Positions 4,645 to 28,862 are shown, counted from the stretch's first letter. The stretch is DNA of 64,000 bases from an uncultured Planctomycetales bacterium (GCA_964583975.1 CAZOXU010000007.1:11051-75050); one strand, 5' to 3'. Notes: generated from the letters alone by a model not told the origin. A program made the numbers and translations.

Positions 4645-4651
4645 CTCTTTC

Positions 4652-6854: not shown

Positions 6855-6924
6855 GGGCCTATTGTGTCAAAAATACGCACCATTAACAATAAAAAATTCC
6901 CAATATGGATGTATTATTAAGATT

Positions 6925-9603: not shown

Positions 9604-9613
9604 TTTATTCTCC

Positions 9614-9895: not shown

Positions 9896-9910
9896 ACATT
9901 TCCCCCTTTG

Positions 9911-11089
9911 TTAACGTTTATTAATAATTTGAAAACATTGTCTAAACCCAATAAAACTAAAAATAGGCAGGACACACAATATAAATGCTGACACCGCACT
10001 AAAATATGGATACTCCCAAATACCATAAATTGCGCCAGAATTATGAATTTGAATATGAAAGACCATCATAGAAACATAATGTGCTAAAGCAGCAATTAAA
10101 CCCCAAGATTTAATCCACAAAAATATCTCAAGATAGTGCAACAAAATACTAAAACGATGAAAGATAAGTACTGCAAACATAAAAAAAGGGAAACTCACGT
10201 ATAAACAAAAGTTTACCCATCCATATATATAGAGAAAGAAGCTGTGAACGCCTGTGATCAAAAACCAATACAAATTCTCTTGGCGCGGACGCAATTGCCC
10301 CTGAAAGATACTGTCAAGAATTTGATTATCAATATTGCTAGATGAAATATTAGAATGCTGTAATAATTGCCTGATTTTCATCCATGGCCCTTGAGGATCA
10401 CTAAGTAATTGCAGTAGATTATTCTTTATTTCATCCCACTTTTGCTTCCCTTGTTGTGAATATTGATGAACAATACTCACGCTTCCTGGTGATAATGAAC
10501 GTAAATCATAGGTTGGATTACGATTAGTATAGAAAGCCAGCGCAGGTAAATAATGCGCATAAATAAAATCATTCAAATCTTTCTTTAAGCTTATATCAAT
10601 AATGGGCGTGTTAATAAATTGATTGGCCTGCAATGCGAGCCTCTGAATTCCTAGAGGTTCATCCAGAAAACGAAAATCATCAGCCAACACGTTATCTATA
10701 GCAGAAATTATCCCAATATTCATAGCATCAGCCATCTGTCCAAAATACGACAGGACTAATGGCATAACATTCATAGTAGTTTGAGAATTCTTGACATCTT
10801 GTGTTGATGTATTACTTGTGCCGTAGACTTCCATGACACTTTTAATATGAGGCTCTTGGCGAGAAGGCACTACTATCATCATCCATCCGGCAATACAAAT
10901 AAAAGCAAACACAGCAAAATGCCTGTAATTTGCCTCTCTAGCTGAACGCCAGACGCTGTAGCCAAATCCGATAGCAAAGGCTACAAATCCTAAATGTGAA
11001 GTAAAAAAGAATCTAACAAGGCTTTGCGATACATTTAACCCCCACGCAGATAGCGCAGCATCAATGGGCGTGAAACCAAAAATATCCAT
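9911..11089 (-). CDS. Polytopic membrane protein (2 N-terminal TM, about 200-aa periplasmic loop, 4-5 C-terminal TM), possibly VirB6/TraG-N-like
   Basis: Topology read from hydrophobic segments only. First gene of the tra-like array. Confidence 0.3.
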   Translation of the reverse strand: MDIFGFTPIDAALSAWGLNVSQSLVRFFFTSHLGFVAFAIGFGYSVWRSAREANYRHFAVFAFICIAGWMMIVVPSRQEPHIKSVMEVYGTSNTSTQDVKNSQTTMNVMPLVLSYFGQMADAMNIGIISAIDNVLADDFRFLDEPLGIQRLALQANQFINTPIIDISLKKDLNDFIYAHYLPALAFYTNRNPTYDLRSLSPGSVSIVHQYSQQGKQKWDEIKNNLLQLLSDPQGPWMKIRQLLQHSNISSSNIDNQILDSIFQGQLRPRQENLYWFLITGVHSFFLYIYGWVNFCLYVSFPFFMFAVLIFHRFSILLHYLEIFLWIKSWGLIAALAHYVSMMVFHIQIHNSGAIYGIWEYPYFSAVSAFILCVLPIFSFIGFRQCFQIINKR

Positions 11090-11274: not shown

Positions 11275-11676
11275 CTAACAAATACCTGCATAAGTTCCTG
11301 TTGCTGTACAAACCCAAGAACCAGCGCTACCTGATGTTCTTGATAATTGAACATAATTGGTACCAGAGGCTTGACGAGAGTTAGTTGCCACAATGAGCAC
11401 TGAACTTCCGCCAGGATTAGTAATGACATAACCCCATTTAGGACTGGAAGCAGCTCCACCCAAAAGACAATTGGTAGGAACGAAATCTTTTCCTTGAAGA
11501 CATCCTTCTACCTGTGTTTTCAAAGAAGAAGCATTTGTTAAAGCTTCAGCTGCTTGTGAACGTTCTACGTTAGCAAATAAATTTGGCAATGCAATAGCTG
11601 CCAAAATACCAAGAATAATCAAGACGACGATAATCTCAATAAGTGTAAAACCTGAATTATTACGTATTTTTCTCAT
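11275..11676 (-). CDS. Type IV prepilin / T2SS major pseudopilin (GspG/PilA-like)
   Basis: MRKIRNNSGFTLIEIIVVLIILGILAAIALP: a class III leader with G/FTLIE prepilin-peptidase site and Glu+5. 133 aa. Confidence 0.85.
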   Translation of the reverse strand: MRKIRNNSGFTLIEIIVVLIILGILAAIALPNLFANVERSQAAEALTNASSLKTQVEGCLQGKDFVPTNCLLGGAASSPKWGYVITNPGGSSVLIVATNSRQASGTNYVQLSRTSGSAGSWVCTATGTYAGIC

Positions 11677-11693
11677 TCTATTCTCCTTATTAG

Positions 11694-13817: not shown

Positions 13818-15061
13818 TAATGACTAATTCCTCCCCCACCCTGTCCAAGCTTAAACAAAGGAAGGAAGATTGAAATGACAATAACCCCAATAACTCCCGC
13901 CATAAAAACTAACATGACTGGTTCAAAAATAGTACTAAACCTTTTCATCGTGGTTTCCACATGATCTTTATAATATTTAGCTACATGATCAAACATTTTA
14001 GCAAGCTCACCTGTTTCTTCTCCCACCTGAATCATTTGAACAGCCAAGACAGGAAAAAAGCTTTCCTTAACCATTGAAACAGCTAGCCCCTTACCCTCGC
14101 TGACATCTTCACGTATTTTGGCAATCAGATACCCGGCGGTTTGATTTTCAACTAATTTTTGGACAATTTCCAAGGCTAAAACAATAGGAACACCTGAACT
14201 CACTAAAATTGACATCTGAGAAGAGAATCGTTCCATAATAATCAATTTCGTCACATCACCAATAATAGGCAATTGAAATATAATTTGTTCAAACTGTAAG
14301 CTTCCCATGGGGGTCTTAAAATAGCTTCTCAAAATAAAGAATACCCCTGCTACCCCCCCTAAAATATACAAAAAATTTGTTTTAATAAATTTAAAAGTTG
14401 CCAATAGAATCTTGGTCATACCCGGAAGATCTGCATGCATGGATACAAAGATTTCTTCAAATCTGGGCGCCACAAAAAGAGCAAAAAACATAACAGCTCC
14501 AACACTAACAAAAACTAGTATAAGTGGATAGATCATAGCTGATATAACCGTACTCTTAAAAGCTGCCTGCTCTTCCACATGTAAGGCTAGTTTATTTAAA
14601 ACAAGAGGCATTGTTCCAGAAGCCTCCCCTACTTCAATAATAGAAACCCAAAACTGAGAAAAAACCTTCGGATGTTTAGCCAAACTTTCGCTTAGGGATT
14701 TACCAGCCTCAACATCCGTTCGTATCTGTTTGGTTACTTCATGAAATTTCTTACTGCTAATCTGAGAAATACATACATCCAAACTACGCAACAAAGCAAC
14801 CCCAGCTTCCAACATCGTTGCTAATTGTCTAGAAAAAATCAAAAGGTCTTCTAACTTAACGCTATCATGAGTAAACTTCATGGTTGTTGATCGAGCTGCT
14901 ACAACCTGTTCTTTAGTCTTTTCATTCATTAATCCGACTTTAATGATAAAAAGACCTTCGCTTTGCAATCTATCTACCACAGCCTGCTCATTGAAAGCCT
15001 CTATAACATCGGTTTTAACCTTACCTTGAGCATCCCTAGCTGTATAAGTGAACATCGGCAT
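13817..15061 (-). CDS. gspF: T2SS/T4P platform protein GspF/PilC
   Basis: 414 aa, duplicated GspF-type domains with three TM helices. Confidence 0.85.
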   Translation of the reverse strand: MPMFTYTARDAQGKVKTDVIEAFNEQAVVDRLQSEGLFIIKVGLMNEKTKEQVVAARSTTMKFTHDSVKLEDLLIFSRQLATMLEAGVALLRSLDVCISQISSKKFHEVTKQIRTDVEAGKSLSESLAKHPKVFSQFWVSIIEVGEASGTMPLVLNKLALHVEEQAAFKSTVISAMIYPLILVFVSVGAVMFFALFVAPRFEEIFVSMHADLPGMTKILLATFKFIKTNFLYILGGVAGVFFILRSYFKTPMGSLQFEQIIFQLPIIGDVTKLIIMERFSSQMSILVSSGVPIVLALEIVQKLVENQTAGYLIAKIREDVSEGKGLAVSMVKESFFPVLAVQMIQVGEETGELAKMFDHVAKYYKDHVETTMKRFSTIFEPVMLVFMAGVIGVIVISIFLPLFKLGQGGGGISH

Positions 15062-15085
15062 AACTAAATTATCCTTGTTATAAAA

Positions 15086-16810
15086 CTAACCCGTACTTAA
15101 AGTCGAGCCTAAAATTTCCTCGACACTCGTTAAACCTTCTTCAACTTTTTTCATTCCTGATTCAAACAAGCTATCCATACCATTTTTACGTGCCGCATCT
15201 TTAAGCTCTTCATAGGTGCAGTTTTTAGCTAACATAGAACGAATTTCTTCATTAATATACATTACCTCTGATATAACCATACGTCCCTTATACCCTGTAT
15301 GAGCACATTCATCACAACCCTTAGCTTTATATAGTAAATCTGTTTTGACCTTATAATCTCCCACAACGACGCCATTATTTTCATAAGGTTCTTTACACTT
15401 TGGACAAAGTTTTCTAGCTAATCTTTGACCAATAACCATAACCAATGAGGGCGTCAAAAGATAGTTAGGCACTCCAATATCCATAAGACGCGTCAAGGCT
15501 GATGGAGCATCGTTGGTGTGAAGCGTGCTTAAAACCAAGTGTCCCGTAAGCGCGGCACGCACACAAATCTGCGCTGTTTCCAAATCACGAACTTCACCCA
15601 CCAGCATTATATCAGGATCCTGGCGCAAAAATGCTCTAAGAGCAGAAGCAAAAGTTAAACCAATTTCTGTACGTACGGCCACCTGATTAATACCTTCGAT
15701 TCTAAATTCTACAGGATCCTCTACTGTAACAATATTTTTAGAAACATCTTTAACTTCATTAAGAGCGGCATAAAGGGTAGTTGATTTTCCACTTCCCGTG
15801 GGTCCAGTAACAAAAAATAAACCGTAAGAAGAATCTAAAGCTTTACGAATAAACCCAAGCTGTTTAGCATCAAATCCTAAATTAGCCAGCTCAAGCTTAA
15901 TGGCGCCTTTATCCAAAATACGCATAACAACCTTCTCCCCCCAAATAGTAGGAATGGTTGAAACGCGTAAATCCACCACTCTGTCTTCTAGTTTAGCTGA
16001 AATATTACCATCCTGTGGCAAACGTTTCTCAGCAATATCTAATTTAGCTAGAATTTTTACACGCGAAACAATGGCCAGATGCAAATGGGCTGCTGGAGGT
16101 GGAATCTGATACAACACACCATCAATACGATAACGAATCTCAATCTTATCCTTACCAGGTTCAATATGGATATCACTAGCCTTCTCATCAATAGCCTGAC
16201 GGATAATCAAGTCCACCAATTTAATAACAGGAGCTTCCTCAGCTTTCGCAATAAGACGGTCAATACTTAATTCTGTTTCAGGCTCCCTAGTCAGACTAAC
16301 ATCTACATCTTCTTCTTTTTGATCCGAATAGCTTTTCTGGACTTCTTTACCCAACATGCTATCTTTACCTTGAGAGGTATAGAAATCATTGATAGCTTTA
16401 GTAAGGTCTGTTTTAGTACCAATCACCAAATTTAGATCAAAACCTGTCAGCTTTGATAAATTATCCAACATTAAAAAATCAAGAGGGTCAAAAACAGCAC
16501 ATGTCAAAGCATTCATGTTTTTTGACAAAGGAAGCACCATATGCTTGCGAGCAAAATCATAAGGTACAATTTGTTCAAGATTTTGATCTAACCGAGGTTT
16601 CATTAATTCGGTTTTTTGAGAAGCGTAAGGTATCATAAGCTGCGTGCCAAGAGCCATGGCTAAATCAGCTTCCGTAATCATACCCAACTTAAGCAACACC
16701 TCTCCAATGCGGCCTTTTTGCTGTTTTTGAGCTTCAATAGCCTCTTGCAGCTGGCTTTCAGTGATCAAACCTTGTTTAATGAGTAGTTCACCGAGTTTTA
16801 GGTGTATCAT
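15086..16810 (-). CDS. gspE: T2SS/T4P assembly ATPase GspE/PilB/MshE with N-terminal MshEN domain
   Basis: Walker A GPTGSGKST, Asp box, His box, tetracysteine CPKC...CDEC. The N-terminus carries two tandem 24-aa RLGxxLLxxGLIxxxxLxxALxxQ motifs separated by 5 aa. Confidence 0.9.
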   Translation of the reverse strand: MIHLKLGELLIKQGLITESQLQEAIEAQKQQKGRIGEVLLKLGMITEADLAMALGTQLMIPYASQKTELMKPRLDQNLEQIVPYDFARKHMVLPLSKNMNALTCAVFDPLDFLMLDNLSKLTGFDLNLVIGTKTDLTKAINDFYTSQGKDSMLGKEVQKSYSDQKEEDVDVSLTREPETELSIDRLIAKAEEAPVIKLVDLIIRQAIDEKASDIHIEPGKDKIEIRYRIDGVLYQIPPPAAHLHLAIVSRVKILAKLDIAEKRLPQDGNISAKLEDRVVDLRVSTIPTIWGEKVVMRILDKGAIKLELANLGFDAKQLGFIRKALDSSYGLFFVTGPTGSGKSTTLYAALNEVKDVSKNIVTVEDPVEFRIEGINQVAVRTEIGLTFASALRAFLRQDPDIMLVGEVRDLETAQICVRAALTGHLVLSTLHTNDAPSALTRLMDIGVPNYLLTPSLVMVIGQRLARKLCPKCKEPYENNGVVVGDYKVKTDLLYKAKGCDECAHTGYKGRMVISEVMYINEEIRSMLAKNCTYEELKDAARKNGMDSLFESGMKKVEEGLTSVEEILGSTLSTG

Positions 16811-18337
16811 TTATTTGTTGTTTTTCTCAGTCGAATCAAGCTGCTGATTGACAGCATCCATTTTGAGGGGATCCATACCTTCACGATCGATGCGTTGGGA
16901 TGCTTCCATTGTAAATTTCTTAAGAAGATTATCATTAGCAATCTTAGGAGTAATAAAAATAATTAATTCTCTTTCGGTCTCTATTACACTCTTGTGACGG
17001 AAAGGTCCTCCTATCACTGGCAGGTCGCCCAAAAAGGGTAATTTAGAAATATCGACAATTCTTTGTTTACGCAACAGCCCCCCGATAATCACTGTTTCTC
17101 CATTCTTGACCTTTAATATGGAATCTGTTTTACGTGATTCCACATCAATAACATTAGTTCCATTAACTCTTATTCCAGAATCGCTGGTGTCATCAATCTG
17201 AGGTGAAACTTTTAAGACAATCTCTCCTGTAGTTAAATTAGCTTGCGGAGTGACATCTAACATAACCTTAACAGGCTTAGTTATAGCTGTTTCTGTTTTA
17301 GTGGTCCCTGTGGTACTTGTACTTTCTGTAGCAGAAACACCCACCGTTCGATCTCCACCAACTTCAATATGACCAGTCTGATTATTTAATGTCAAAATCT
17401 TTGGACTAGCTAAACTATGCGTGTCAGCCTGAGATTTTAAAAAATCTAGAGCTGCCGTCATGCCAGAAAAATCAAGAATACCAGGAGTAAATTGTAACGA
17501 ATTAGCAGGTCCCGAATCGCTACCCGAGCTAGATGATCCTGAACCCCCTGATGAACTATCCGATGAATCAGAACCTGATGCTAATTTATAAGGGGCTCCC
17601 CCATTATTCATTTTATTTAAAATAAAATTTTGATTAAAAGGAACCAGGGTCTCTCTAGAACCACCCCTAAACGTAAGAGGCGTTTGCCCATAAAGCACAC
17701 CTATTTTCTCTGAATTCCCCTTAGAAACGTCTAATATTTCCACTTCAATTAAAATTTGCACTACAGGCACATCAAGCTTGGCAATAGTTTCTTCAATTAA
17801 AGGAAATTGTTCAGGAACATCCGAAATGATAAAACTATTTGTCCTAGGATCTTCTTGTAATTTTCCATCTTTGGATTTAATAGCATCTAACGCAGCCTTA
17901 ATGCCTCCTGTTGCATCCTTGCCGTTCATTTTAGAAGTCGACACCGAAGCAAACTTTAGAGGAAAAACCTTTGTAACTGTTTTGTCTTTTTCCTTGGGCT
18001 TAACAATAAAAACGTTGCTATTTGCAGTCATTTCATAAGTTAAATCATTAGCATCTAAGATTTTCTCTAACGCTTCTTCCGTAGGAACTTTTTCTAAAAA
18101 AATTGTTACTTTCTTGTTAGACACTTCTGCCGCTGATATAAAATTTAATCCTGCTTGCTGGGAGAATATTTTTAACACATCAGTTAATGAAGTATCTCTA
18201 GAATTGATTGAAATTTTCTTGGAATAATCAGAATAGATAAAACGATTTTCAATATCTTCCACAGCTGCTACCGATAAAGTAGTAGAAAACATGATCAGGT
18301 ATAACGACATTGCTAGGTAACGAAAATTCATGAACAC
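16811..18337 (-). CDS. gspD: Secretin (GspD/PilQ family), short form
   Basis: 508 aa. Signal peptide, N0-like domain, Ser/Gly/Asp low-complexity linker, C-terminal secretin domain (VIIGGLLRKQ...LPFLGDLPVIGGPF). Confidence 0.85.
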   Translation of the reverse strand: MFMNFRYLAMSLYLIMFSTTLSVAAVEDIENRFIYSDYSKKISINSRDTSLTDVLKIFSQQAGLNFISAAEVSNKKVTIFLEKVPTEEALEKILDANDLTYEMTANSNVFIVKPKEKDKTVTKVFPLKFASVSTSKMNGKDATGGIKAALDAIKSKDGKLQEDPRTNSFIISDVPEQFPLIEETIAKLDVPVVQILIEVEILDVSKGNSEKIGVLYGQTPLTFRGGSRETLVPFNQNFILNKMNNGGAPYKLASGSDSSDSSSGGSGSSSSGSDSGPANSLQFTPGILDFSGMTAALDFLKSQADTHSLASPKILTLNNQTGHIEVGGDRTVGVSATESTSTTGTTKTETAITKPVKVMLDVTPQANLTTGEIVLKVSPQIDDTSDSGIRVNGTNVIDVESRKTDSILKVKNGETVIIGGLLRKQRIVDISKLPFLGDLPVIGGPFRHKSVIETERELIIFITPKIANDNLLKKFTMEASQRIDREGMDPLKMDAVNQQLDSTEKNNK

Positions 18338-18369
18338 TCCACGATCTTGTTAAGAAGTATTATTAAAAA

Positions 18370-18933
18370 TTATTTTATTTCATTTTGCAACAAAAAGCTA
18401 CTGCCATCCTGACTTTTTATTAGGACACCCTTTTGCTCAATTTTTAAAACTTTGACAAACTCAACCTTATCATTTTCAGCGAGATCCAAAACTCCACCAT
18501 CATAAAGAACGCGAGTCTTGGTAAGATTAACATCATGACCAACACCTTTAATCTGTTGATTAATAATAATAAAATAATCTCCTTCGCTCACCACATTATC
18601 ATTAATCACCGCTTGAGGATGCGGGGTGTCTAAAACCAAACAGCTGATTTTAAATTCCTTACTCAAGTCCACTCTGTCAGGCGGCTTGGGTTTTATATCA
18701 ATTGGCTTTGGTGGTTCTGGCGGTTTGACGACAACCTTCTTCTTAGGAATCAGCCTTAAAAATGGATTCTTAGGATCAGACAAGAAGTCATTAATAAGCT
18801 GCTCTTCAGCATCTTTATCTTGTTTGAGTTCAACTGCTTTTTCAGCAACAGCGGCAGACTTTTCTGCAGACCATTTGACAGGAACAAATACAAAACATTG
18901 GAATACTAAAAGTATTATGACTCTTTTAATCAT
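18370..18933 (-). CDS. PilP/GspC-like periplasmic protein with Pro/Lys-rich linker
   Basis: 187 aa, signal peptide, PPEPPKPIDIKPKPP linker, C-terminal beta domain. Immediately upstream of the secretin. Confidence 0.4.
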   Translation of the reverse strand: MIKRVIILLVFQCFVFVPVKWSAEKSAAVAEKAVELKQDKDAEEQLINDFLSDPKNPFLRLIPKKKVVVKPPEPPKPIDIKPKPPDRVDLSKEFKISCLVLDTPHPQAVINDNVVSEGDYFIIINQQIKGVGHDVNLTKTRVLYDGGVLDLAENDKVEFVKVLKIEQKGVLIKSQDGSSFLLQNEIK

Positions 18934-19460
18934 TTTTTAACCTGAACAGAAGTAAGATTAAACTCATAACTAGTTGCTTCTGCATCGGATTCATCCATCG
19001 TTCCCTTCCATTTTTCAATCTTAAATGGATATTTTCCCGTCTCTAGCATATTCATAAAAGAGACCAGATCTTTGAAGTCTTTTATTTTAACTGTTAACAA
19101 TATAGGGGTGACTATGTAATAATCAAATTTTTTAATGTCTCCGGCATTGATTTCAATAATTTCTACGTTATGTTGCAGGGCGTAGTCGGCAATTTTATTA
19201 GTTAAAGCATCAGAAGTAAGGGGCTTAGGTAAAGCAGCGACATAGTCACTAAGTTGCTTTTTAACATTACCCCGCTCTTCAATCACAATATTTTTCTGCT
19301 TTTTTTGCTGAATCTGGCTCTGGTAAGCAGCTGTTTTAGAAGAAAAACTGCCCCACAAAACTATCCCCAATATAAAAAAAGCCAGCACAACGACCACAAC
19401 TAAAATAAGGCTTTTTTTAGCAAGAATATTTTGTAGCGTATTATTCGGATTCGCACTCAT
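18930..19460 (-). CDS. PilO/GspM-like bitopic protein
   Basis: 176 aa, single TM after about 20 aa, periplasmic coiled-coil plus ferredoxin-like region. Operon position. Confidence 0.4.
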   Translation of the reverse strand: MSANPNNTLQNILAKKSLILVVVVVLAFFILGIVLWGSFSSKTAAYQSQIQQKKQKNIVIEERGNVKKQLSDYVAALPKPLTSDALTNKIADYALQHNVEIIEINAGDIKKFDYYIVTPILLTVKIKDFKDLVSFMNMLETGKYPFKIEKWKGTMDESDAEATSYEFNLTSVQVKK

Positions 19461-19466
19461 AGAATC

Positions 19467-21029
19467 TTATAACCCCTGAGAACCGGTAATTGTAAATGTC
19501 GAAACATTTTGACCATCCAATTCTTTTTTCTGCGGAGATGTCGAAGTAAAGGTCATTTCAGAAAAATACTTGCTCTCTCTTAAATTATTCAAGAATTCAC
19601 TAACCTTTCTATATTCGACCCCTTTATCTTTCACATAAATATACCCAGCCAATTCTAAACTTATACGATTATTCGAAAGGGTTGTAATTTTAGCTTCCTG
19701 CAACCATATTCCAGCTGGAACGGCCCTCGTCAAAACTACCACCATTGGCGCCATACGACTACTACTTTGAGACTGAATTTTTTCGTAATTATCTATCTTA
19801 TCTTTATCAGCTTTTATTTCTAATTTAAGCTGTTCGACAGAGAAATTAAGAAAGTCTTGATCTGTCTTAGCCATCTTCTCATTTTGTTTTTTAATAACAT
19901 CTAACTTTTGTTGCCCCAGATAAAAAACGCCTCCCAACAATAAGGAGCACAATAAAGCAGCGACAATAGCAGGTTTAAAATCTTCTAGGGTCAGACCTAA
20001 AAATTGACTAAAATCAAAAGATAAAGCATTAGGGCTTGAACTACTGGTTGCCTGAGGCGCGGCCTTCGCTTCCAAGAAATTAAATGCATTAAACTTTGAA
20101 GAAACCTTATCCAACGAAGAACCCCAAGCGCACACACTATCCATGCCCAAATGTCGCTGCAAACCTACGTTAAGCGAGGGATCTGCAATTCGGACTTTCA
20201 CTGTCAATTCTTCCGTCAAAATACGGGTCAATTCTGGATCAGGAATATCTGTAAGGACTAATACCTCTTTTATTTTTTCTTGGGAAAACTGACTATTGTA
20301 ATAACCAAATGATTTTCTAACCTCCCTTACGAGTTGCGCCCGTACAATATCAGAAGCAGCCTTAGGATCATGCCCTTCCGTCACAGATAAAGCAAAATCT
20401 CTCACAAAGTAAGCAATCCCCTTTTCATAAAAAATAATGTGGACATCATGCTTATTGATATAAACAACAACCGTACTTTGATCAATTTTTAAGAACTTTT
20501 TAGAGATGAGATACTTAGCCAGACTAACTAACGCTGGTTCAAAAATAAATGGCTTACCACCGATTTGCTTGATGATACGTTCATATTTTTCTAACGTCTG
20601 TTTTCGAACAGCATAAAAAATAATTCTCCAGCGTTTTTGATTTCCATCTATTTGAACCACTGGCTGATACATGTAATCCAACAGTTTTAAATCAAAAGGT
20701 AAATATTTCTTGGCTTCATAAAAAACGGCATTATTTAATTCGTTAGTTGTCATCCAAGGAATCACAAAAGAACGTAAAAATATTTCTTCAATAGGAATAG
20801 AAACGCAAACTTGACCAGGATTAATCTTTTCATCTCGAAATACTTTTTGAATATGGCCAACGATCTGTGTTTCAACTACAGTTTCAGAGCCATAGGATGC
20901 ATCTTGGGCAGGACTAAGGATAGAATTTAAAGGGGTAGATAAAACCCTTTGCAATTTATTGCGATTAGAGTTTGTTAAAACAAGGAGCTGATCGGTAAGA
21001 TAAATACCTATTCTATCGAGATTTGCCAT
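19467..21029 (-). CDS. PilM-PilN fusion (GspL-like): cytoplasmic actin-like domain, TM, periplasmic domain
   Basis: 520 aa. N-terminal about 330 aa actin/FtsA-like, TM helix AIVAALLCSLLLGGVFYL, then coiled-coil periplasmic segment. Confidence 0.55.
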   Translation of the reverse strand: MANLDRIGIYLTDQLLVLTNSNRNKLQRVLSTPLNSILSPAQDASYGSETVVETQIVGHIQKVFRDEKINPGQVCVSIPIEEIFLRSFVIPWMTTNELNNAVFYEAKKYLPFDLKLLDYMYQPVVQIDGNQKRWRIIFYAVRKQTLEKYERIIKQIGGKPFIFEPALVSLAKYLISKKFLKIDQSTVVVYINKHDVHIIFYEKGIAYFVRDFALSVTEGHDPKAASDIVRAQLVREVRKSFGYYNSQFSQEKIKEVLVLTDIPDPELTRILTEELTVKVRIADPSLNVGLQRHLGMDSVCAWGSSLDKVSSKFNAFNFLEAKAAPQATSSSSPNALSFDFSQFLGLTLEDFKPAIVAALLCSLLLGGVFYLGQQKLDVIKKQNEKMAKTDQDFLNFSVEQLKLEIKADKDKIDNYEKIQSQSSSRMAPMVVVLTRAVPAGIWLQEAKITTLSNNRISLELAGYIYVKDKGVEYRKVSEFLNNLRESKYFSEMTFTSTSPQKKELDGQNVSTFTITGSQGL

Positions 21030-21139
21030 AAATTATGGAATACAAACTTCTTCCGTTTTTACAAACACTATAACAATAATATATAAACTTTTTTTATTTA
21101 ACTATAGGTAGGATGGCTTGTCAATACAATAGATGAGAA

Positions 21140-21472
21140 TTAATAACTAACATTGACTTGAATATTAGATCCCGTAGAAGCAAAGGATGTATTAAAAACC
21201 CGGCCATTAATAGTATCGCTACAGACACCTGATACGCAAGTACCTGTAAATGCGGTCCCGCTCCCTGCCGATTGAGAAAAACTTTTCCAATATTGACCTT
21301 TGGCTAACTCTTCTGCAACGATGGCATCAACTTGAGAACGAGTGGTTCGACTTTGACTCATACTTTGGGAAAAAATAGTCGCACTAACAATAGACATAAT
21401 GATAATAATTATTAAAACAACTATTAGAACAATGCCTGTCTCGTTTTTATGGATCGCCAATTTCTTAAACAT
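21140..21472 (-). CDS. Minor (pseudo)pilin with PilX_N/GspK-like N-terminus lacking Glu+5
   Basis: NETGIVLIVVLIIIIIMSIVSATIF hydrophobic N-terminus after Gly. 110 aa. Confidence 0.4.
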   Translation of the reverse strand: MFKKLAIHKNETGIVLIVVLIIIIIMSIVSATIFSQSMSQSRTTRSQVDAIVAEELAKGQYWKSFSQSAGSGTAFTGTCVSGVCSDTINGRVFNTSFASTGSNIQVNVSY

Positions 21473-21523
21473 CCGTTCTCTCCTTACAGGACCCCATCGT
21501 TTGGCCTCACGAGCCAGACGAAA

Positions 21524-21754
21524 CTAATCATGGTAACTCAAACACCTTGGACATCGGCATGCATCTTTTTTATTCTGAAAAAAGTCTAAATATACATAAC
21601 CACAATAATGACAATGTTTTAAATACTCTGAAACTTTATGCCCAACCACTTCTCGATCTCTCTTTAAATTATATATGACCCAGAAAGTTAAAACAAGGCC
21701 AATGGATAAAATCAATGTCACTGCAAAAATAGCATCAAATCCCCAAATAAACAT
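21524..21754 (-). CDS. Small membrane protein with C-terminal Zn-ribbon (CHYC...CRCPRC)
   Basis: 76 aa, one TM, four Cys in CxxC pairs. Confidence 0.3.
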   Translation of the reverse strand: MFIWGFDAIFAVTLILSIGLVLTFWVIYNLKRDREVVGHKVSEYLKHCHYCGYVYLDFFQNKKDACRCPRCLSYHD

Positions 21755-21781
21755 ATAAATTTTCCTGTACGGCTTAGGTTA

Positions 21782-21801
21782 CCTGCCTGCCGGCAGGCAG
21801 G
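21782..21801. repeat. Copy A of GC-rich palindromic repeat, CCTGCCTGCC/GGCAGGCAGG
   Basis: Perfect 20-nt palindrome in an otherwise AT-rich spacer. Core shared with copies at 41611-41651 and 52964-53010. Confidence 0.55.
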
Positions 21802-21812
21802 CCCATCCCCTA

Positions 21813-22070
21813 CTAACGTGGCTTATTGATTTGCCGCATCTTTAACCATGGCTGAAAGAACGCTCCAGAAGATTCATTAAACATAACTTCTTCCATCCCT
21901 TTACTTGATACCACGCTCAAGGTGTTTTCTTGATCAGATTGAGCTGGAGCTATCATTTGCCCCAAATAAGCAAATGAACTGCTTTGTCTGGGAGAAGAAA
22001 CAGAAAAACCAACCCAAACAAAACTTACAATTAAAATATGCACAAAAATGGAAACCAGATAATAGCGCAC
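21813..22070 (-). CDS. Short TonB/TolA-like membrane-anchor protein (stub)
   Basis: 85 aa. N-terminal TM directly following exbD. No recognisable C-terminal TonB domain. Confidence 0.25.
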   Translation of the reverse strand: MRYYLVSIFVHILIVSFVWVGFSVSSPRQSSSFAYLGQMIAPAQSDQENTLSVVSSKGMEEVMFNESSGAFFQPWLKMRQINKPR

Positions 22071-22071
22071 G

Positions 22072-22473
22072 TTAATTCCTTTGGTCGGTCACGATATGAA
22101 CTTGAGCATTTCCCATGGCCCGACATAAATCCCAAACATCCATTACCCTACCCATCGATGAATGACGATCAACTCTAATAAAAATATTGCGATGAGAATA
22201 ATCAATCTTAGCAAGATTCTTTCTAAGCTCATTAAGTGTCACAACCTTACCATTTAAATAGAATATGTTCTCGGCTGTAATCGTGATCGTTTGATCGTTT
22301 TGTAAATTCTCACTTTCAACGCCTGAAGGAATAAACACTTCAAAACCAGCAGGTCTAGAGAACGAAGAACAATAAATAAGAAACAAAAGAATTAATAAAA
22401 AAAGATTAAAGACCGCAGCCATTAAAATTGGATAAAAAGGGATTTGTATAATTTGAAAATTATTGGTGTTCAT
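22072..22473 (-). CDS. exbD: ExbD/TolR biopolymer transport protein
   Basis: 133 aa, single N-terminal TM. Characteristic size and position after exbB. Confidence 0.75.
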   Translation of the reverse strand: MNTNNFQIIQIPFYPILMAAVFNLFLLILLFLIYCSSFSRPAGFEVFIPSGVESENLQNDQTITITAENIFYLNGKVVTLNELRKNLAKIDYSHRNIFIRVDRHSSMGRVMDVWDLCRAMGNAQVHIVTDQRN

Positions 22474-22476
22474 TGT

Positions 22477-23139
22477 CTAGGTGTTTTCTTGGGAAGTATT
22501 CAGCTGAGACATTTGAACCATAATATGTACTGTTTGAGCCATAGCAATTTGCAAATCAGCAACGATGTTATTAATCCTTGATACACAAAAGCTATACACA
22601 GAAAAACTCAAAATACAAACCATCAATCCCGCCACACTCGAGAACAAGGCCTGCCAAACACCTAAGGTCACATCACCTACACTTAAAGGATTTAACACGT
22701 TGGAACGAATCTGAATTGAATGAAAGACTATTGTTAAACCTATTATAGTTCCCAATAAACCTATCAATACCGATAAATTAATAATGAAATACAAAATGCT
22801 CATTCGTTCTTTCAAACGATAAGCCTCATAAACAAAAACTTCTTCGGCTGCTGTTTTAATAACATCTGCCGAACTACCAAACTTTAATAAGGCTGCTTTA
22901 AAAATACGACTAAAAGGACTATCATAAGATTCACAAATGCTCAATGTATGTTTAATGCTTTCTTTTTGTAGTGAATTCATTAAATTGATCCTATGAATTT
23001 TTCCAAGTTTTTCTAAAGAAGACAAAAAAACAAGTCTTTCAATCCCCACAGCTAAGGCGACAACAGACATCAAAATAAGCGGCCACATCATCGGTCCGCC
23101 TCTTAAAATTAATTGCCAAACATTAAATATTGTTACCAT
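22477..23139 (-). CDS. exbB: ExbB/TolQ/MotA-family proton channel
   Basis: 220 aa, three TM helices, conserved C-terminal TM pattern. Confidence 0.75.
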   Translation of the reverse strand: MVTIFNVWQLILRGGPMMWPLILMSVVALAVGIERLVFLSSLEKLGKIHRINLMNSLQKESIKHTLSICESYDSPFSRIFKAALLKFGSSADVIKTAAEEVFVYEAYRLKERMSILYFIINLSVLIGLLGTIIGLTIVFHSIQIRSNVLNPLSVGDVTLGVWQALFSSVAGLMVCILSFSVYSFCVSRINNIVADLQIAMAQTVHIMVQMSQLNTSQENT

Positions 23140-25598
23140 TATTTTCTCCCTCCCACATTAGCAGCCAGCCAATCTAAACGCTCTTGGGCAAATTTAGATT
23201 CCTCAGAGTTTAATTGAACAATCTTCTGATAGGTGACCCGCGCTCCATCCCAATCCTTACGATCTTCATAAATCCTGGCAACTCTCAAGTAGGCCTTCGC
23301 CGCCCAAGATGATTGCTTGGCAGACACAGAAGAAACTTTTAAATACTCGCTAACAGCCTCATCTAACCGCCCCATGAGTTCATAGGTGTCTCCAATATCA
23401 AACAAAATCTCAGCATTACTAATCTTTCCTTTAGAAGCATCTACTTCCAAAGCTTTGCGATAGGTTTCAATTTCTTTATCATAACTTTGATTATTACGAT
23501 AAAGTTGGGCTATTTTTAAATACGATTCTCTGGCCAACTCTGGAGACTCAGCAGCAATAGCTTCATAAGCCTGCGCAGCTTTTTGAGAATCAAATTCTTT
23601 GGCAAATATGCCTGCAATAGCTAACTTGACCTTAGAAAAAAGCACCGCGTCTGTATTAGAGATTTGCTTATACCGAGCTAGGGCTTGATCATATAACCCT
23701 TGAATTTCAAAGGCCTGTCCCATTTCATAATTAATCTGTTCAATACCTGCATGCTCAGGAAAATGATCTAGAATTTGCTGATAATACGTCAATGATTGGG
23801 TATAATCGCCATTCTTTAAATAAAACTGAGCCAACCACAATGAAGCTTCAAACTCAGCCTCGGTTTTAGGATATTTATAAACAATTAATTTAAATCGTTT
23901 AACGGCCTCTTTAATTTGTTTTAATTCATACTGACATTTAGCAATACCAATATCTGAATTCTTGGCCACATTGGTATCTTCTGGATAAAGCCGTAGAATC
24001 TTTTGAAATAACTTTAATGCCTCCTCTGGCTGTTTTAAATTTAAATAAGACAAAGCTAAAACATAATTAGCTTCTGGCAAAAAGCTAGCTGGACGAGAAT
24101 AATTCTTTAAGAATTCGTCCATTTTTATAGCAGCGGCTTTAAAATTACCGCTTCGAAAAGCAGCCAATCCCAAATAATAATTAACGTCCTCCAAATAACG
24201 ACTATTGGGGAAATTAGCTTTTAAGTGTTCAAAAGCAACAACCGATGCTTTAATCTTTCCGATCTTTAAAAGAGCAATGGCCTGACGATGTTCAACATAA
24301 TCAAACATTGTGTTATCTGGATATTTCTTCAATATTCCATCATAAATATCCACCGCTTCACTCATTTTCCCAGCATCGGCTAAAGCATCGGCCATCTGAA
24401 GCAAAGCATTGACCTTCACATCCACTTTGTCTGTAGTATCAGCAATTTTTTGGAAACGCTCTTGAGCCATATTCAAGCTATTTAACTTAGCATAGGTCCA
24501 TGCTATTCCTAAATTAGCTTTTAAAGCTAACTCTTGATTCTCTCCCCGATCAATCACATAGCTGTAGTCTCCCAAAGCATCTTCAAATTTCTTAAGCATG
24601 AAATTGACGTTGGCCCTTCCTAAATGAGCCTCAAGGTAATGTGTTCCTCGCGGATAATTCTTAATTAAGTCATTATAAACTTCGACGGCAGATTGAAAAT
24701 CTTCTTTCTCCACAAAAATATTGGCTTTGACAAGCAAAAGATCATCATCAGGAATCCCTTTAGCTTTACAAAACTCTTGTCCATCCTTAAGAACTTTTTG
24801 AGCTTCTGTGAATTTTTTTAACTTCAAACAACTCCATATCTTTCCTGTATAAGCTGTAAAAACCAATTTAGTATCAGTGGATTTCAAAGCCTTATCATAA
24901 TAGGTAAGCGCATTTTCATAGTCATCCATATAATAATAAGTATCCGCCACATTCAAATAAACATCCCATAGATGCTCTGATTGAGGATATTTAGTCAGAT
25001 AACGCATGAATTTACTTAAAGCCCCGTGATAATCCTCTGTATCATAAAGTGATTGCGCCAGCTTCAAAGTAGCATCTTCTGCCAATTGATGTTTTGGAAA
25101 ATCCTTCACCAATTGATCAAATAGGTCTCTAGCTTGAGCGTATTTCTTCTGATCAAAGTAAGACCATCCTAAAGAATAATATGCTTGAGGCAAATAAGCT
25201 GATTGGGGATAATTATCGATAAGTTCTTGGTAGCGAGCCTGGGCTTGAGGATAATTATTCATTTTTAAATACACCTCTCCCAGCCAAAAAATCAAAAGTT
25301 CTTTATTATCAAACGTATCATCCAAACTATTAAATGCATTTAGCGCCTCTGGAAATTTATTCTTAAAGAAATAACACTGTCCCAACAAAAATTTAGCTTG
25401 AGACAATTTAGGATGAGAAGGAAAATCCTGCATCAACTGCTCTAAATAACGAATAGCAACATCATAAAAGCCATCGTCAAAAGCTCTCAGAGCAGTAGCA
25501 TACAATTCATCTCTTTGGCTTTGGGCATAAACTGCACTCGAAGAAGAAAAACAAAATAAAAGACATAAACAAAAACCCAGCCATTTAATTTTTCGCAT
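23139..25598 (-). CDS. Large secreted TPR-repeat protein (>15 TPR units)
   Basis: Signal peptide MRKIKWLGFCLCLLFCFSSSSAVYA. Repeated Y/F-x-x-A-x-x-x-Y motifs throughout 819 aa. Confidence 0.85.
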   Translation of the reverse strand: MRKIKWLGFCLCLLFCFSSSSAVYAQSQRDELYATALRAFDDGFYDVAIRYLEQLMQDFPSHPKLSQAKFLLGQCYFFKNKFPEALNAFNSLDDTFDNKELLIFWLGEVYLKMNNYPQAQARYQELIDNYPQSAYLPQAYYSLGWSYFDQKKYAQARDLFDQLVKDFPKHQLAEDATLKLAQSLYDTEDYHGALSKFMRYLTKYPQSEHLWDVYLNVADTYYYMDDYENALTYYDKALKSTDTKLVFTAYTGKIWSCLKLKKFTEAQKVLKDGQEFCKAKGIPDDDLLLVKANIFVEKEDFQSAVEVYNDLIKNYPRGTHYLEAHLGRANVNFMLKKFEDALGDYSYVIDRGENQELALKANLGIAWTYAKLNSLNMAQERFQKIADTTDKVDVKVNALLQMADALADAGKMSEAVDIYDGILKKYPDNTMFDYVEHRQAIALLKIGKIKASVVAFEHLKANFPNSRYLEDVNYYLGLAAFRSGNFKAAAIKMDEFLKNYSRPASFLPEANYVLALSYLNLKQPEEALKLFQKILRLYPEDTNVAKNSDIGIAKCQYELKQIKEAVKRFKLIVYKYPKTEAEFEASLWLAQFYLKNGDYTQSLTYYQQILDHFPEHAGIEQINYEMGQAFEIQGLYDQALARYKQISNTDAVLFSKVKLAIAGIFAKEFDSQKAAQAYEAIAAESPELARESYLKIAQLYRNNQSYDKEIETYRKALEVDASKGKISNAEILFDIGDTYELMGRLDEAVSEYLKVSSVSAKQSSWAAKAYLRVARIYEDRKDWDGARVTYQKIVQLNSEESKFAQERLDWLAANVGGRK

Positions 25599-25601
25599 AA
25601 G

Positions 25602-28400
25602 TTAACGGTCTCTTTCCATAAAAGTTTTTAAATATACTCCAGTATGTGAAGAACGATTCTTAAGGATTTCCTCAACACTACCACTAAAAACAAGCTCTCC
25701 ACCCTTATCTCCACCATCTGGACCTAAATCAATAATATAATCAGCCGATTTAATAACATCGAGATTATGCTCAATTACAAGGACAGTATTGCCTCGATCA
25801 ACCAATCTTTGCAACACCTTCAGAAGCTTATCTACATCAGCAAAATGTAATCCTGTGGTTGGCTCATCTAGGATATAAAACGTGCTTCCTGTGGCAGGTT
25901 TACATAATTCAGTAGCTAATTTGACTCTTTGAGCCTCACCACCGGAAAGTGTTGTTGCTGATTGCCCCAAGCGAATATAACCTAAACCAACATCATGAAG
26001 TGTTTCTAAAACAATCTTGATTTTGGGTATATTATCAAATAAAGCGATTGCTTCTTCAACCGATAAGTTTAGAACATCCGCAATATTCTTACCCTTAAAC
26101 TCTACTTCCAAGGTTTGTTCTGTAAATCTTTTCCCATGGCAAACCTCACATTGAACATAAACATCTGGCAAGAAATGCATTTCTATTTTCTTAATACCAT
26201 CTCCACCACAAGCCTCACAACGACCTCCTTTAACATTAAAACTAAACCTGCCTGGTTTGTAACCACGCATTTTAGATTCAGGCAACTGAGAGAATAAATC
26301 ACGAATATGAGAAAACATTCCGGTATAGGTGGCAGGATTCGATCGTGGGGTCCGCCCAATTGGAGATTGATCTACAACAATCACTTTATCGATATGTTGC
26401 AACCCCTCTATCTTTTTATGCTGACCCGGCTTTTCTTTAGTACCATGCAATTTATGGCTAATAGCTTTGTATAAAATCTCTTCTACCAAGGTTGACTTGC
26501 CAGACCCAGAAACCCCTGTCACACAAACAAATGTCCCTAAGGGTATTAATACATCAATATTTTTTAGATTGTGTTCTTTGGCTCCTATGATTTTAAGAAA
26601 CTTGACATCAACAATGTCTCGTCGTTTATCTGGTGTATGAATTTTAAAAGAACCATTCAAATATTGTCCTGTAAGCGAATCATTACACTTAACCAAGCCT
26701 TTGACAGCACCCGCATACATAATCTTACCACCATGTTCCCCTGCTCCTGGCCCTAAATCAATTACATAATCAGCGCGGCGAATCGTATCTTCATCATGCT
26801 CCACAACAATAAGCGTATTTCCCAAATCTCTTAAAGCATGTAGTGTTGCCAACAATCGATCATTATCTTTTTGATGTAAACCAATGCTTGGTTCATCAAG
26901 AACATAAATTACACCCACTAAACCAGAACCAACCTGGGTGGCCAATCGAATGCGTTCAGCTTCACCACCGGAAAGCGTAGAACTCCGCCTATCCAAACTT
27001 AAATATTCCAAGCCAACATTGATACAAAAATCTAAACGACGATTAATTTCTTTTAATATCTCAGCACTAATGATTTGTCTATCTTTAGAAAGTTTTAAAC
27101 CATCAAAGAAAACTTTTGCTTCCTTGATAGAGAGACATGTCACATCCGTAATATTACTGTTTCCCACCTTAACTGAAAGCGACTCTTTTTTAAGACGCTT
27201 GCCTTCGCAAGCTGGACAAGAAGACACAGACATAAAAGAAGAAATCTCTTCCTTTAACCAATCACTATCTGTCTCTTTAAATAATCGTTCAAGGTAACCC
27301 ACTACCCCCTCAAATTGCCGTCCCCAAACCTCATCCTCAGAACCATAAAAAATAATATTCTTAAATTTCTTGTCTAATTGGCTAAATGGCAAACGAGGAT
27401 CCACATCGTAGGCATTTGCTATCTCTCGAAGCACTGCCCGATAATACATCATGTAACCACGTTTCCCTTTTTTCCAAGGAACAATTGCAGTTGTCCAAGG
27501 TTTAGAAGAATCAGGGACCAAGGCCTCAGGATCTATTTCCATCTTGGTTCCTAAACCATTACATTCGACACAAGCGCCATAAGGAGAATTAAACGAAAAA
27601 ATACGCGGTTCTATTTCACTTAAAGAAGTGCCACAGTCTATACAAGCATAGCGCTCGCTAAAAGTCTGGTCAGGTCGACTGCCATTGAAATCAATAACTA
27701 CAATCCCCTCTCCGATCTTTAAAGCTGTTTCTACAGACTCAAAGAGACGCTTACGAATATCTTCTCTAATACTAAGACGATCAACAACAGCTTCAATATG
27801 GTGAATTTTGTATTTATCTAGCTTAATATTATCTTGTGTTTCATAAATCTTACCATCCACTCGAAGTCGGGCAAAACCAGACTTCACAACCTGCGCTTGA
27901 ATATTTCGATACTCTCCCTTGCGACCACGAATTAAAGGAGCCAGAACATTGATCTTTGTTGCTTCTGGCAAGCTTAAAATCTGATTAACAATTTGTTGAA
28001 CACTTTGCTGTTCAATCTTCTTTCCACAGGAATAACAATATGGTTCACCAATACGAGCAAACAAAAGACGCAAATAATCATAAATCTCTGTCTGAGTTGC
28101 CACTGTTGATCGAGGATTACGGCTGGTTGTTTTTTGTTCAATGGAAATAGTAGGCGACAGTCCTTCAATGTGTTCGACCTGGGGTTTTTGCATCTGGTCT
28201 AAAAACTGTCGGGCATAGGCTGAAAGGCTTTCGACATAACGTCGCTGCCCTTCGGCATAAATAGTATCAAAAGCTAAAGAAGATTTACCTGAACCACTTA
28301 AACCCGTCACAACCACAAATTGATTACGCGGAATGGTTAAATCAATATCTTTAAGATTATGTTCCTTAGCCCCACGAATAATAATAGAGTCTGATTTCAT
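25602..28400 (-). CDS. uvrA: Excinuclease ABC subunit A
   Basis: 932 aa. Two ABC ATPase modules ([23 protein letters not shown]). Zn-finger Cys clusters. Confidence 0.95.
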
Positions 28401-28445
28401 AGCCGTTTATTTTATATAAAAGACAACCCCTGTACCATAGAAAAG

Positions 28446-28473
28446 TGAAGGGTCGGGAATAATCCCGACCCTT
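28446..28473 (-). terminator. Hairpin GAAGGGTCGGG-AATAA-TCCCGACCCTTC downstream of the Lys-rich protein gene
   Basis: Perfect 11-bp stem followed on the minus strand by a T-rich tract. Confidence 0.5.
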
Positions 28474-28562
28474 CATCCCGAGGAAAAATGACGAGGGATC
28501 TACGAACTTAAGATCCTTCGGCAGCTGCCTCAGGATAATTTGCTGATTAACAGCAAATTAAA

Positions 28563-28862
28563 CTATTTGCGCTTTGCTGTCTTCTTTTTAGAAGATTTTT
28601 TCGCAGAAGACTTCTTTGCAGAAGACTTCTTGCGTGTACCGCCGCGCACCATCTTAGCACAGGAGACGTCTCCTTGTTTATCGATGAAATAAAGATACCC
28701 TTCTTCTCTTTTGACTCCGACCTTGGCGACTTTCTTGGTTGAACCACCTTTGCTGCCACCTCGGGCCATTTTAGCAGCAGAGATATCTCCCTGCTTGTCT
28801 AAGAAATACAGGTAACCCTTTTCTTTCTTAACTCCTACTTTAGCGACTTTTTTAGATGCCAT
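28563..28862 (-). CDS. Small basic protein with tandem about 39-aa duplication and Lys/Ser/Ala-rich tail (histone H1-like, nucleoid-associated?)
   Basis: KKVAKVGVKKEKGYLYFLDKQGDISAAKMARGG repeated as KKVAKVGVKREEGYLYFIDKQGDVSCAKMVRGG, then KKSSAKKSSAKKSSKKKTAKRK. Confidence 0.5.
   Translation of the reverse strand: MASKKVAKVGVKKEKGYLYFLDKQGDISAAKMARGGSKGGSTKKVAKVGVKREEGYLYFIDKQGDVSCAKMVRGGTRKKSSAKKSSAKKSSKKKTAKRK

Follow-up and report, generated by a model that had tools for sequence, protein, structure and literature searches.

A probable derivative of an old TonB-type module beside a type IVa pilus operon in one lineage of Candidatus Omnitrophota

Introduction

When the genes for an ExbB/ExbD-type complex lie packed against those of a type IV pilus, are the two machines coupled, or are they only neighbors? 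The question is raised by a block of six minus-strand genes in a stretch of 64,000 nucleotides (GCA_964583975.1, CAZOXU010000007.1:11051-75050; the whole of it is termed ‘the window’ below), the source of which is, to judge by the names of public homologues of its ExbB protein, a Candidatus Omnitrophota genome with a GC content of about 37%. In order of transcription, the block encodes a large tetratricopeptide repeat (TPR) protein, an ExbB/TolQ-family protein, an ExbD-family protein, an 85-residue ‘stub’, a 76-residue membrane protein with conserved cysteines (here ‘Zn76’) and a 110-residue PilX-like protein, and it lies directly upstream of a type IVa-pilus-like operon that begins with a fused pilM-pilN gene (pilMN).

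An earlier note on this DNA had described a motor driven by the proton-motive force, joined to the pilus genes by tight linkage in a 14-gene ‘supra-operon’ and possibly coupled to the pilus and secretin apparatus, or alternatively a Tol-Pal-like envelope system. That reading is upheld in part. The identities of the genes and their linkage within the window’s own clade stand; the supra-operon and the coupling of a proton-driven motor do not. The explanation that we favor, and consider moderately probable, is that the block derives, in a degenerate form peculiar to its lineage, from an old and self-contained five-gene TonB-type module, which stands beside a pilus operon in one lineage of Omnitrophota.

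The TonB-family remnant and its module

All six open reading frames (ORFs) occur among the ORF calls of the window (Table 1). From the TPR gene to the PilX-like gene they are separated by -1, 3, 1, 58 and 51 nt, which bears out the description of six co-oriented genes with internal gaps of at most 60 nt; a further 110 nt separate the last of them from pilMN. Because the identical order of all six recurs in more than 50 independent Omnitrophota loci (from genomes and metagenomes), they can be regarded as genuine genes rather than chance ORFs. Their assigned identities were also essentially right, by Pfam matches (Table 1) and, for the 85-residue ORF, by profile-profile comparison, which placed it as a remnant of the TonB family.

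The stub matches no Pfam or NCBIfam family. It has a transmembrane helix with the pattern S7-x3-H11 (VSIFVHIL), followed by an (F/Y)-x-G motif; S-x3-H is part of the SHLS motif, by which TonB docks on ExbB and TolA on TolQ (PMC8928145). The same helix is found in the proteins encoded at this position (‘X’) at every length in which they occur in Omnitrophota and Kiritimatiellota, whereas X proteins of the Verrucomicrobiota type are without the histidine. Comparison with hhalign relates the stub to an X protein of approximately 150 residues (X150; probability 88%, E 3e-6), and X150 in turn to full-length X at its N-terminus (probability 91%, E 1e-6). Full-length X carries a TonB C-terminal domain (TonB_C; cut-off 24.6 bits), which scores 36 bits in locus L048 and gives weaker matches in L068, L050 and L008. 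Stub and X150 share a conserved terminal P-(W/Y)-x3-R...K-P-R tail (P-W-x3-R-x3-K-P-R in the window), and the stub has neither a proline-rich spacer nor TonB_C, the alignment showing the C-terminal domain to be deleted. The TonB-family protein of this module can be arranged in a truncation series, from about 230-260 residues with TonB_C through ~150 residues to 85, and the stub is, by these comparisons, the N-terminal remnant of a protein that carries TonB_C in sister lineages.

As reconstructed from sequence, the old module joins a large periplasmic TPR protein to relatives of ExbB and ExbD, an anchor of the TonB family and a small protein with a transmembrane helix and a zinc ribbon. It is shared by Omnitrophota and Kiritimatiellota and, with the TPR protein missing, by genomes of the Verrucomicrobiota type. 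The last of these components, Zn76, is the conserved final gene of the ExbB-ExbD-TonB-like set in three phyla and, because its position after the TonB-like gene is fixed in all three, is likely to be a fifth subunit. It has an invariant MFIW N-terminus, a transmembrane helix modelled with a pLDDT above 90, a positively charged segment and a cysteine-rich knuckle (C48-x2-C51...C66-x-C68-x2-C71, every cysteine invariant) that ends in an invariant CRCPRCLSYHD; the protein is predicted to be bitopic, with its zinc-ribbon-like knuckle in the cytoplasm. Domain searches gave weak generic zinc-ribbon matches and no Pfam or NCBIfam family, and among its 13 close public homologues 12 are unnamed and one is a ‘hypothetical protein’.

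Sequence conservation indicates that the genes of the module are not decaying. The window and its relatives are 62-73% identical in ExbB, 58-64% in ExbD and 67-73% in the TPR protein, against 44-62% in PilMN and 33-53% in PilO, and the five proteins of the module, including the stub and Zn76, are all better conserved than PilMN, PilO, the 187-residue protein of the pilus operon and the PilX-like protein.

The missing transmembrane aspartate

The description of ExbB and ExbD as a proton-motive-force motor fails at a single residue. The ExbD of the window has Asn23 where a transmembrane aspartate is expected (E. coli ExbD D25, TolR D23, MotB D32), and so is without the protonatable side chain. 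E. coli ExbD and TolR sequences served as references in these alignments, and the column was confirmed independently by a comparison of the family profile with solved ExbD and TolR chains, in which the family consensus ‘plidvvlllliff’ aligns to PFIDVMLVLLIIF of 6tyi. That profile has 7ajq and 6tyi as its best matches, with scores of 78 (7ajq_F) and 72 bits for ExbD structures and 47.7 bits for TolR. The family profile was needed for such comparisons; a single-sequence phmmer search of the Protein Data Bank with ExbD returned only spurious matches to toxin repeats.

Asparagine is found at this position in the genome loci of the window’s clade (with the exception of L017, which has serine) and in 18 of 18 stub-type metagenome loci. 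Mid-type loci are divided between aspartate (11) and asparagine (8), and most Omnitrophota loci with full-length X, as well as the Kiritimatiellota, have aspartate. At least three changes from aspartate to asparagine are required on a neighbor-joining (NJ) tree, and ExbD proteins of the Verrucomicrobiota type are also without the aspartate, having G, A, S or T in its place (L008, L009, L059-L061, L069, L084, L085, L087-L089).

Other parts of the putative ion path are retained to different degrees. The pore-lining threonine ring of characterised complexes (TolQ T145/T178; ExbB T148/T181) is kept in the ExbB of the window as T131, which is invariant and corresponds to TolQ T145, and S168, which preserves a hydroxyl at the position of TolQ T178. 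The position of TolQ E173 and ExbB E176 is occupied by Q163, and glutamine is found there throughout the family. In Asn-type lineages, His140 of ExbB is enriched, no compensating acidic residue has been gained in ExbB or ExbD, and several acidic positions of ExbB have been lost. An acidic residue near the N-terminus of Zn76 was considered as a substitute and rejected, being present in Asp- and Asn-type lineages alike.

These observations bear on the proposal that the module is still an active, ion-driven Ton-like motor, with a non-canonical coupling residue, that powers some process of the envelope by way of the TPR protein or the stub’s tail. All five genes are under strong purifying selection, the Thr/Ser ring is retained, His140 is at hand, and the repeated and independent replacement of the aspartate (Omnitrophota having Asn in its place, and Verrucomicrobiota-type loci G, A, S or T) suggests a family that tolerates its loss. 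However, the transmembrane aspartate is regarded as essential for proton trafficking in characterised ExbD, TolR and MotB stators, without which no characterised family member works (PMC8928145), and neither a compensating carboxylate nor the full set of ExbB acidic positions is found here. We regard such a motor as very unlikely.

Distribution of the module and of the pilus genes

Linkage was followed from both sides. From the side of the module, 79 genome loci were gathered with a narrow ExbB profile and annotated with purpose-built profiles; in the reverse test, metagenome loci were gathered from a narrow PilMN alignment, and the 35 of these with at least 3.6 kb of upstream sequence were scored. 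The linkage, whose conservation the earlier note had proposed to check, is invariant in the window’s clade; in other Omnitrophota and in outgroups the ExbBD block occurs without pilus genes, and five of the 35 pilMN loci occur without ExbBD. The unlinked arrangement that the note had named as evidence against its reading is thus found among relatives.

The stub clade is recovered with an NJ bootstrap of 100 on the TPR protein, ExbB and ExbD together, and is fully collinear from genes for an aminotransferase, HPPK and PanC through uvrA to the pilin. Since that collinearity starts as far away as the aminotransferase, HPPK and PanC genes, synteny is frozen in this clade for unrelated genes too. 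The wider ‘clade B’ (bootstrap 100), with an X protein of ~150 residues, is also pilus-linked. Other Omnitrophota (‘clade A’) have X proteins of 220-265 residues; several of their lineages show the order uvrA-TPR-ExbB-ExbD-X-Zn76, followed by genes for a 68-residue winged-helix-like protein, CutA1, RsmE, a MiaB-like protein, DnaG and RpoD, with no pilus genes, and one subgroup (L044, L048, L049, L058) is pilus-linked. Farther afield, Kiritimatiellota (Pontiella and others) have a five-gene TPR-ExbB-ExbD-X-Zn76 set that ends at a convergent gene, and Verrucomicrobiota-type loci, together with one Acidobacteriota locus, have ExbB-ExbD-X-Zn76; pilus genes are absent from both arrangements.

In the reverse test, ExbBD was found at 30 of the 35 pilMN loci, and the other five were without ExbB, ExbD, X and Zn76. 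The ExbBD-less lineage of Omnitrophota (L135 7428-8471, L147 9004-10007, L159, L166, L157) has the order uvrA-TPR-(68-residue winged helix-turn-helix)-PilX-like-(excisionase-type helix-turn-helix)-pilMN, the TPR gene being kept beside the PilX-like gene and pilMN.

The PilX-like gene is found only in pilus-linked loci and is still present where ExbBD is lost. Its distribution would place it with the pilus genes, even though the pilMN promoter described below is downstream of it. Its product has a putative prepilin-type leader ending at Gly13, a conserved junction between glycine and the hydrophobic helix, and an invariant VSATIFSQSMSQ segment; the N-terminus also weakly matches the first 50 residues of GspK. 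An AF2 model (pLDDT 70.7) consists of a long helix and a three-stranded sheet, for which Foldseek found no significant match, the best full-length one being a minor pseudopilin of an Xcp model (TM score 0.50, E 1.6). Seven close public homologues are all unnamed.

Does the distribution argue for a functional connection? The ExbBD-type complex might be part of the type IVa pilus and secretin apparatus, either as an energizer or, in its Asn form, as a structural subcomplex, with the tail of the stub, the TPR solenoid and the PilX-like protein forming its links to PilMN, PilO or the secretin. Adjacency in every member of clade B, in the L048 group and in 30 of 35 metagenome pilMN loci is what such a connection predicts, as is the packing of the PilX-like gene against Zn76 (with a median gap of 9 nt across loci) upstream of the pilMN promoter; some mid lineages keep both the aspartate and a truncated TonB-like protein, and might conceivably have a motor that is active and has acquired a new output. 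There is also a precedent, as cited in PMC8811193, in P. aeruginosa tonB3 and A. baumannii tonB2, which affect type IV pili and transformation. However, sister Omnitrophota and outgroups have the module as an autonomous set, one pilMN lineage is entirely without ExbBD, uvrA and biosynthetic genes are linked as tightly and as stably, the module of the window has neither the protonatable aspartate nor TonB_C, and in two loci (L004, L005) an insertion sequence (IS) element lies between the TPR gene and ExbB. Coupling to the pilus is therefore, in our judgement, possible but doubtful, and the suggestion of the earlier note to that effect is not supported.

The inserted DNA in those two loci carries genes for an IS1595-family transposase and a P63C-domain protein (L004 8279-9926, and L005), the rest of the block being intact.

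Promoter and predicted transcription units

The supra-operon had been proposed on the strength of tight linkage. From ~600 to 49404, however, the window contains a run of 50 consecutive minus-strand genes, among them uvrA and genes for arginine and lysine biosynthesis and for ribosomal proteins. Over its 49 junctions the median gap is 6 nt (38 of them are at most 60 nt). Because uvrA and 49 other genes are equally packed, tight co-oriented spacing is uninformative here; applied consistently, it would bring uvrA, which is kept next to the TPR gene in nearly all Omnitrophota loci examined, into the ‘supra-operon’ as well. Only five junctions of this run are larger than the one that separates the PilX-like gene from pilMN; across related loci the median length of that gap is 95 nt, whereas gaps within the block have medians of 9 nt or less. 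GC skew is negative throughout the window.

Within that junction lies a sigma-70-type promoter-like element (Table 1), the single match in the window to a relaxed promoter pattern. Among 30 distinct genome loci with pilMN, 24 have TTGACA-N16-18-T.(T/A)AAT no more than 250 nt from the pilMN start, most commonly as TTGACAA-N17-TCTAAT (overall TTGACAA-N17-T(C/G)TAAT), and the motif was also found in 35 of 62 metagenome loci. Elsewhere in those genome loci it occurs four times in 1.04 Mb (both strands), one of these occurrences (in L039) being 300 nt upstream of pilMN. Since a non-coding element is conserved here between loci with ExbB identities of 40-70%, it is probably a functional promoter and possibly also an operator. 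The presence of this dedicated promoter counts against the supra-operon and against coupling to the pilus.

In some lineages the motif is partly palindromic (TTGACAA...TTGTCTAA), which again suggests an operator. In several lineages the PilX-like gene is separated from pilMN by a small gene for an excisionase/MerR-like helix-turn-helix protein (..KQTIYNWLNQ-K-ISGIK-G-VWRFD..) (L048 13041-13280; the gaps of L039 and L057; L135 8229-8471).

The earlier note had named a promoter together with a terminator at 21,030-21,140 as grounds for giving up the linkage; the conserved promoter is there, and terminator prediction in this gap gave no terminator-like site. The only strong intrinsic-terminator-like hairpin in 15-29 kb lies upstream of uvrA, and a conserved -35/-10-like element, GGTACA-N16-TA(A/G)AAT, follows or overlaps it and ends ~12 nt before the uvrA ATG (28400-28480; also L002, L017 and L035), which suggests a very short leader on the uvrA transcript. 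The most likely units, as predicted from these elements, are [uvrA-TPR-exbB-exbD-tonB’-zn76-pilX’] followed by [pilMN...pilC]. An Rfam scan of 10-30 kb had nothing above threshold, its sub-threshold matches falling on the hairpin upstream of uvrA.

The gap between the stub and Zn76 contains a perfect 20-nt GC palindrome, CCTGCCTGCCGGCAGGCAGG, that is repeated at 52979-52998; two copies are present in a window of 37% GC where none is expected by chance, and their sites share nothing beyond the palindrome itself. The palindrome could be an element of the REP type or a site at which a protein binds. A role as terminator was considered for the copy in the block and rejected, there being no T-run after it and a fold z-score of -1.8.

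The TPR protein, ExbB and the Tol-Pal alternative

The TPR protein and ExbB resemble components of Tol-Pal. The TPR protein matches the YbgF-type model TIGR02795 with 240 bits, spread over 10 repeated TPR stretches of its 819 residues, and the ExbB family profile prefers TolQ structures to ExbB structures (70.5 against 52.7 bits); the anchor helix has S-x3-H, as in TolA. From these likenesses it might be argued that the module is the organism’s Tol-Pal-type system for the envelope and division, with the TPR protein as an analogue of CpoB/YbgF. However, the score of the TPR protein with the CpoB equivalog NF008068 is 94.6 bits against a cut-off of 383, and CpoB has about 260 residues. The ExbD profile favors ExbD over TolR, full-length orthologues of the anchor carry TonB_C and not the domains of TolA, and an 85-residue stub is too short to span the periplasm. 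Neither TolB nor Pal was found in the window, where ORFs of 32-49 kb were read and domain matches were used elsewhere, or in the domain-annotated parts of related loci, for which the profile maps had no model of TolB or Pal. More generally, the NCBIfam equivalogs all score far below their cut-offs. A Tol-Pal system is for these reasons highly improbable. The association of the TPR protein with ExbB is itself broad, a protein of similar size being encoded directly upstream of ExbB in both Omnitrophota and Kiritimatiellota.

Interpretation

How might a degenerate TonB-type module work? An ExbB5-ExbD2-like complex would still assemble in the inner membrane, with the helix of the stub docked on ExbB through S-x3-H and the zinc-ribbon protein attached. 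Such a complex would be unable to run the canonical aspartate-based proton cycle or to reach the TonB boxes of outer membrane proteins. Because both the aspartate and TonB_C have been lost, the complex and its TPR solenoid would act as a static or non-canonical scaffold in the membrane and periplasm, rather than as a transducer of force from the proton-motive force to the outer membrane. The pilus operon would start at its own promoter, and the transcript of the module would most likely also take in uvrA, which precedes it, and the PilX-like gene, which follows it. The neighboring pilus machine is the most obvious candidate target of the complex; the arrangement can be explained without a link to it, and the ExbBD-less lineage speaks against one.

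Several observations weigh against the derivation of the block from a self-contained module that merely adjoins the pilus genes, some of them in favor of pilus coupling. Adjacency is invariant in the window’s clade, and a pilin-like gene stands on the ExbBD side of the pilMN promoter. Loss of TonB_C occurs only in pilus-linked lineages, and the change from aspartate to asparagine within them or immediately beside them (L052 has asparagine and is not pilus-linked, and Verrucomicrobiota-type loci are also without the aspartate), a distribution that would fit co-option by the pilus machine as well. As no terminator was found, read-through across the pilMN promoter is possible, and the operon structure is itself predicted from sequence. 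Finally, the strong conservation of a ‘dead’ stator is odd, and a residue that we do not recognize as such, for example His140 of ExbB, may handle ions.

A broader interpretation, which we think quite unlikely, combines these elements: an undescribed family of 5:2-type envelope complexes would have lost the aspartate repeatedly, and in one clade of Omnitrophota would have lost its TonB output and been co-opted as a non-rotary accessory of the pilus, the PilX-like protein and the TPR solenoid linking the subcomplex to the type IVa machine.

What is new here, under the preferred reading as well, is a Ton-like module with a zinc-ribbon subunit, in a form that has neither the aspartate nor TonB_C. 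To our knowledge, the ExbBD, TolQR and MotAB stators are thought to need one transmembrane aspartate without exception, and Ton systems a TonB C-terminal domain; a clade of uncultured, ultra-small bacteria keeps a conserved ExbB-ExbD-TonB set that has neither, and with it a zinc-ribbon subunit of the membrane that had so far gone unnoticed. If functional, this set would show what such complexes do without proton-driven force transduction, or would point to another coupling chemistry, and its nested states, in which Asp accompanies the full-length and the truncated TonB and Asn the stub, are natural variants for testing. For genome annotation it holds a warning, namely that tight co-oriented spacing in compact genomes is no evidence of an operon or of functional coupling. 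Literature searches found no account of this module or of ExbBD in Omnitrophota; in a description of the type IVa pilus clusters of that phylum, F-type ATPases are noted nearby and ExbBD is not mentioned (PMC10066038).

Other features of the window

The pilus operon consists of genes for the PilM-N fusion, a PilO/GspM-like protein, a 187-residue protein, a secretin, an ATPase, PilC, a 707-residue protein with membrane and TPR segments, and a pilin. Directly downstream of the pilin gene, at 1004-11089 on the same strand, lie genes of an F-type conjugative type IV secretion system, which encode TraC (834 residues), TrbI/TraB-like, TraK-like and TraE-like proteins and a 392-residue polytopic protein; because relatives such as L002 are without these genes at that site, they may be an integrated mobile element. 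On the far side of the block, at 28563-28862, a 99-residue lysine-rich protein is encoded directly upstream of uvrA. It is kept across Omnitrophota (also at L002 4396-4665 and in other loci), belongs to no Pfam family, and is made up of two copies of the repeat KVAKVGVK-x-E-x-GYLYF-x-DKQGD-x-S-x-AKM-x-RGG.

Table 1. Coordinates of the block, its neighbors and associated sequence elements, numbered from the first nucleotide of the window.
Feature	Position	Strand	Remarks
Type IVa-pilus-like operon	11275-21029	minus	PilM-N fusion through pilin
PilM-N fusion (pilMN)	19467-21029	minus	520 aa; fusion kept in all related loci
Sigma-70-type promoter-like element, TTGACA-N17-TTAAAT	21096-21124	minus	~66 nt upstream of pilMN ATG
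PilX_N/GspK-N-like protein	21140-21472	minus	110 aa; PilX_N 23.2 bits, below cut-off of 25.5
Zn76	21524-21754	minus	76 aa; transmembrane helix, invariant Cys
GC palindrome, 20 nt	21782-21801		stub-to-Zn76 gap; repeated in window
TonB-family remnant (stub)	21813-22070	minus	85 aa; GTG start; no Pfam match
ExbD-family protein	22072-22473	minus	133 aa; Pfam ExbD (PF02472) 61.2 bits, gathering cut-off 25.4
ExbB/TolQ-family protein	22477-23139	minus	220 aa; Pfam MotA_ExbB (PF01618) 66.2 bits, gathering cut-off 22.9
TPR protein	23139-25598	minus	819 aa; signal-like N-terminus; TPR_6/YbgF-type repeats
uvrA	25602-28400	minus	932 aa; stop 3 nt from TPR start
Intrinsic-terminator-like hairpin	28446-28475	minus	upstream of uvrA; only strong one in 15-29 kb

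Comparison with known systems

Among the systems to which the module may be compared is TonB-ExbB-ExbD of E. coli. The two share the order exbB-exbD-tonB-like, Pfam domains above cut-off, the S-x3-H anchor and an ExbD profile that best matches ExbD structures, and in sister lineages the anchor still carries TonB_C. In contrast to E. coli, the TonB of the window has 85 residues with no proline-rich spacer or TonB_C, ExbD has asparagine for D25 and ExbB glutamine for E176, the conserved TPR and transmembrane zinc-ribbon proteins are additional subunits, and no TonB-dependent transporter is encoded nearby.

The TonB2 operon of Vibrio (ttpB-ttpC-exbB2-exbD2-tonB2-ttpD) provides an example of a multi-gene Ton operon that includes a TPR protein, the essential TtpD of 425 residues (PMC6957404); the likeness noted here is one of composition. 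Unlike that operon, the block has no TtpB or TtpC, its TPR gene is first rather than last and twice as long, and its last place is taken by the zinc-ribbon subunit. With Tol-Pal the module shares an ExbB that is TolQ-like in sequence and size, TPR repeats of the YbgF type and an SHLS-type anchor helix, and it differs in an ExbD that is not TolR-like, in an anchor that is of the TonB type in relatives and a stub here, and in a TPR protein that is not a CpoB equivalog.

Two further comparisons concern the neighborhood of the pilus. AglRQS-Glt of Myxococcus and GldLM of Bacteroidota, which we take to be TolQR/ExbBD-like motors that drive envelope machines, offer the concept of a 5:2-type stator encoded beside an envelope-spanning machine; those motors, however, keep the acidic coupling residue and a dedicated output that spans the periplasm, whereas both are absent here and the linkage is lineage-specific. 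A TonB-family protein is likewise tied genetically to the function of type IV pili in P. aeruginosa (TonB3) and in A. baumannii (TonB2), but these are, as represented in the work that cites them, full-length TonB proteins with no ExbBD-TPR-zinc-ribbon module. The anti-phage system Zorya (ZorAB) was also considered and rejected: the matches to ZorA were weak (E 2e-4), no other component (ZorB, ZorC, ZorD or ZorE) was matched, and PADLOC assigned no defence system. Taken together, these likenesses and differences in sequence and gene content indicate that the family to which the module belongs is best described as a separate Ton-like lineage.

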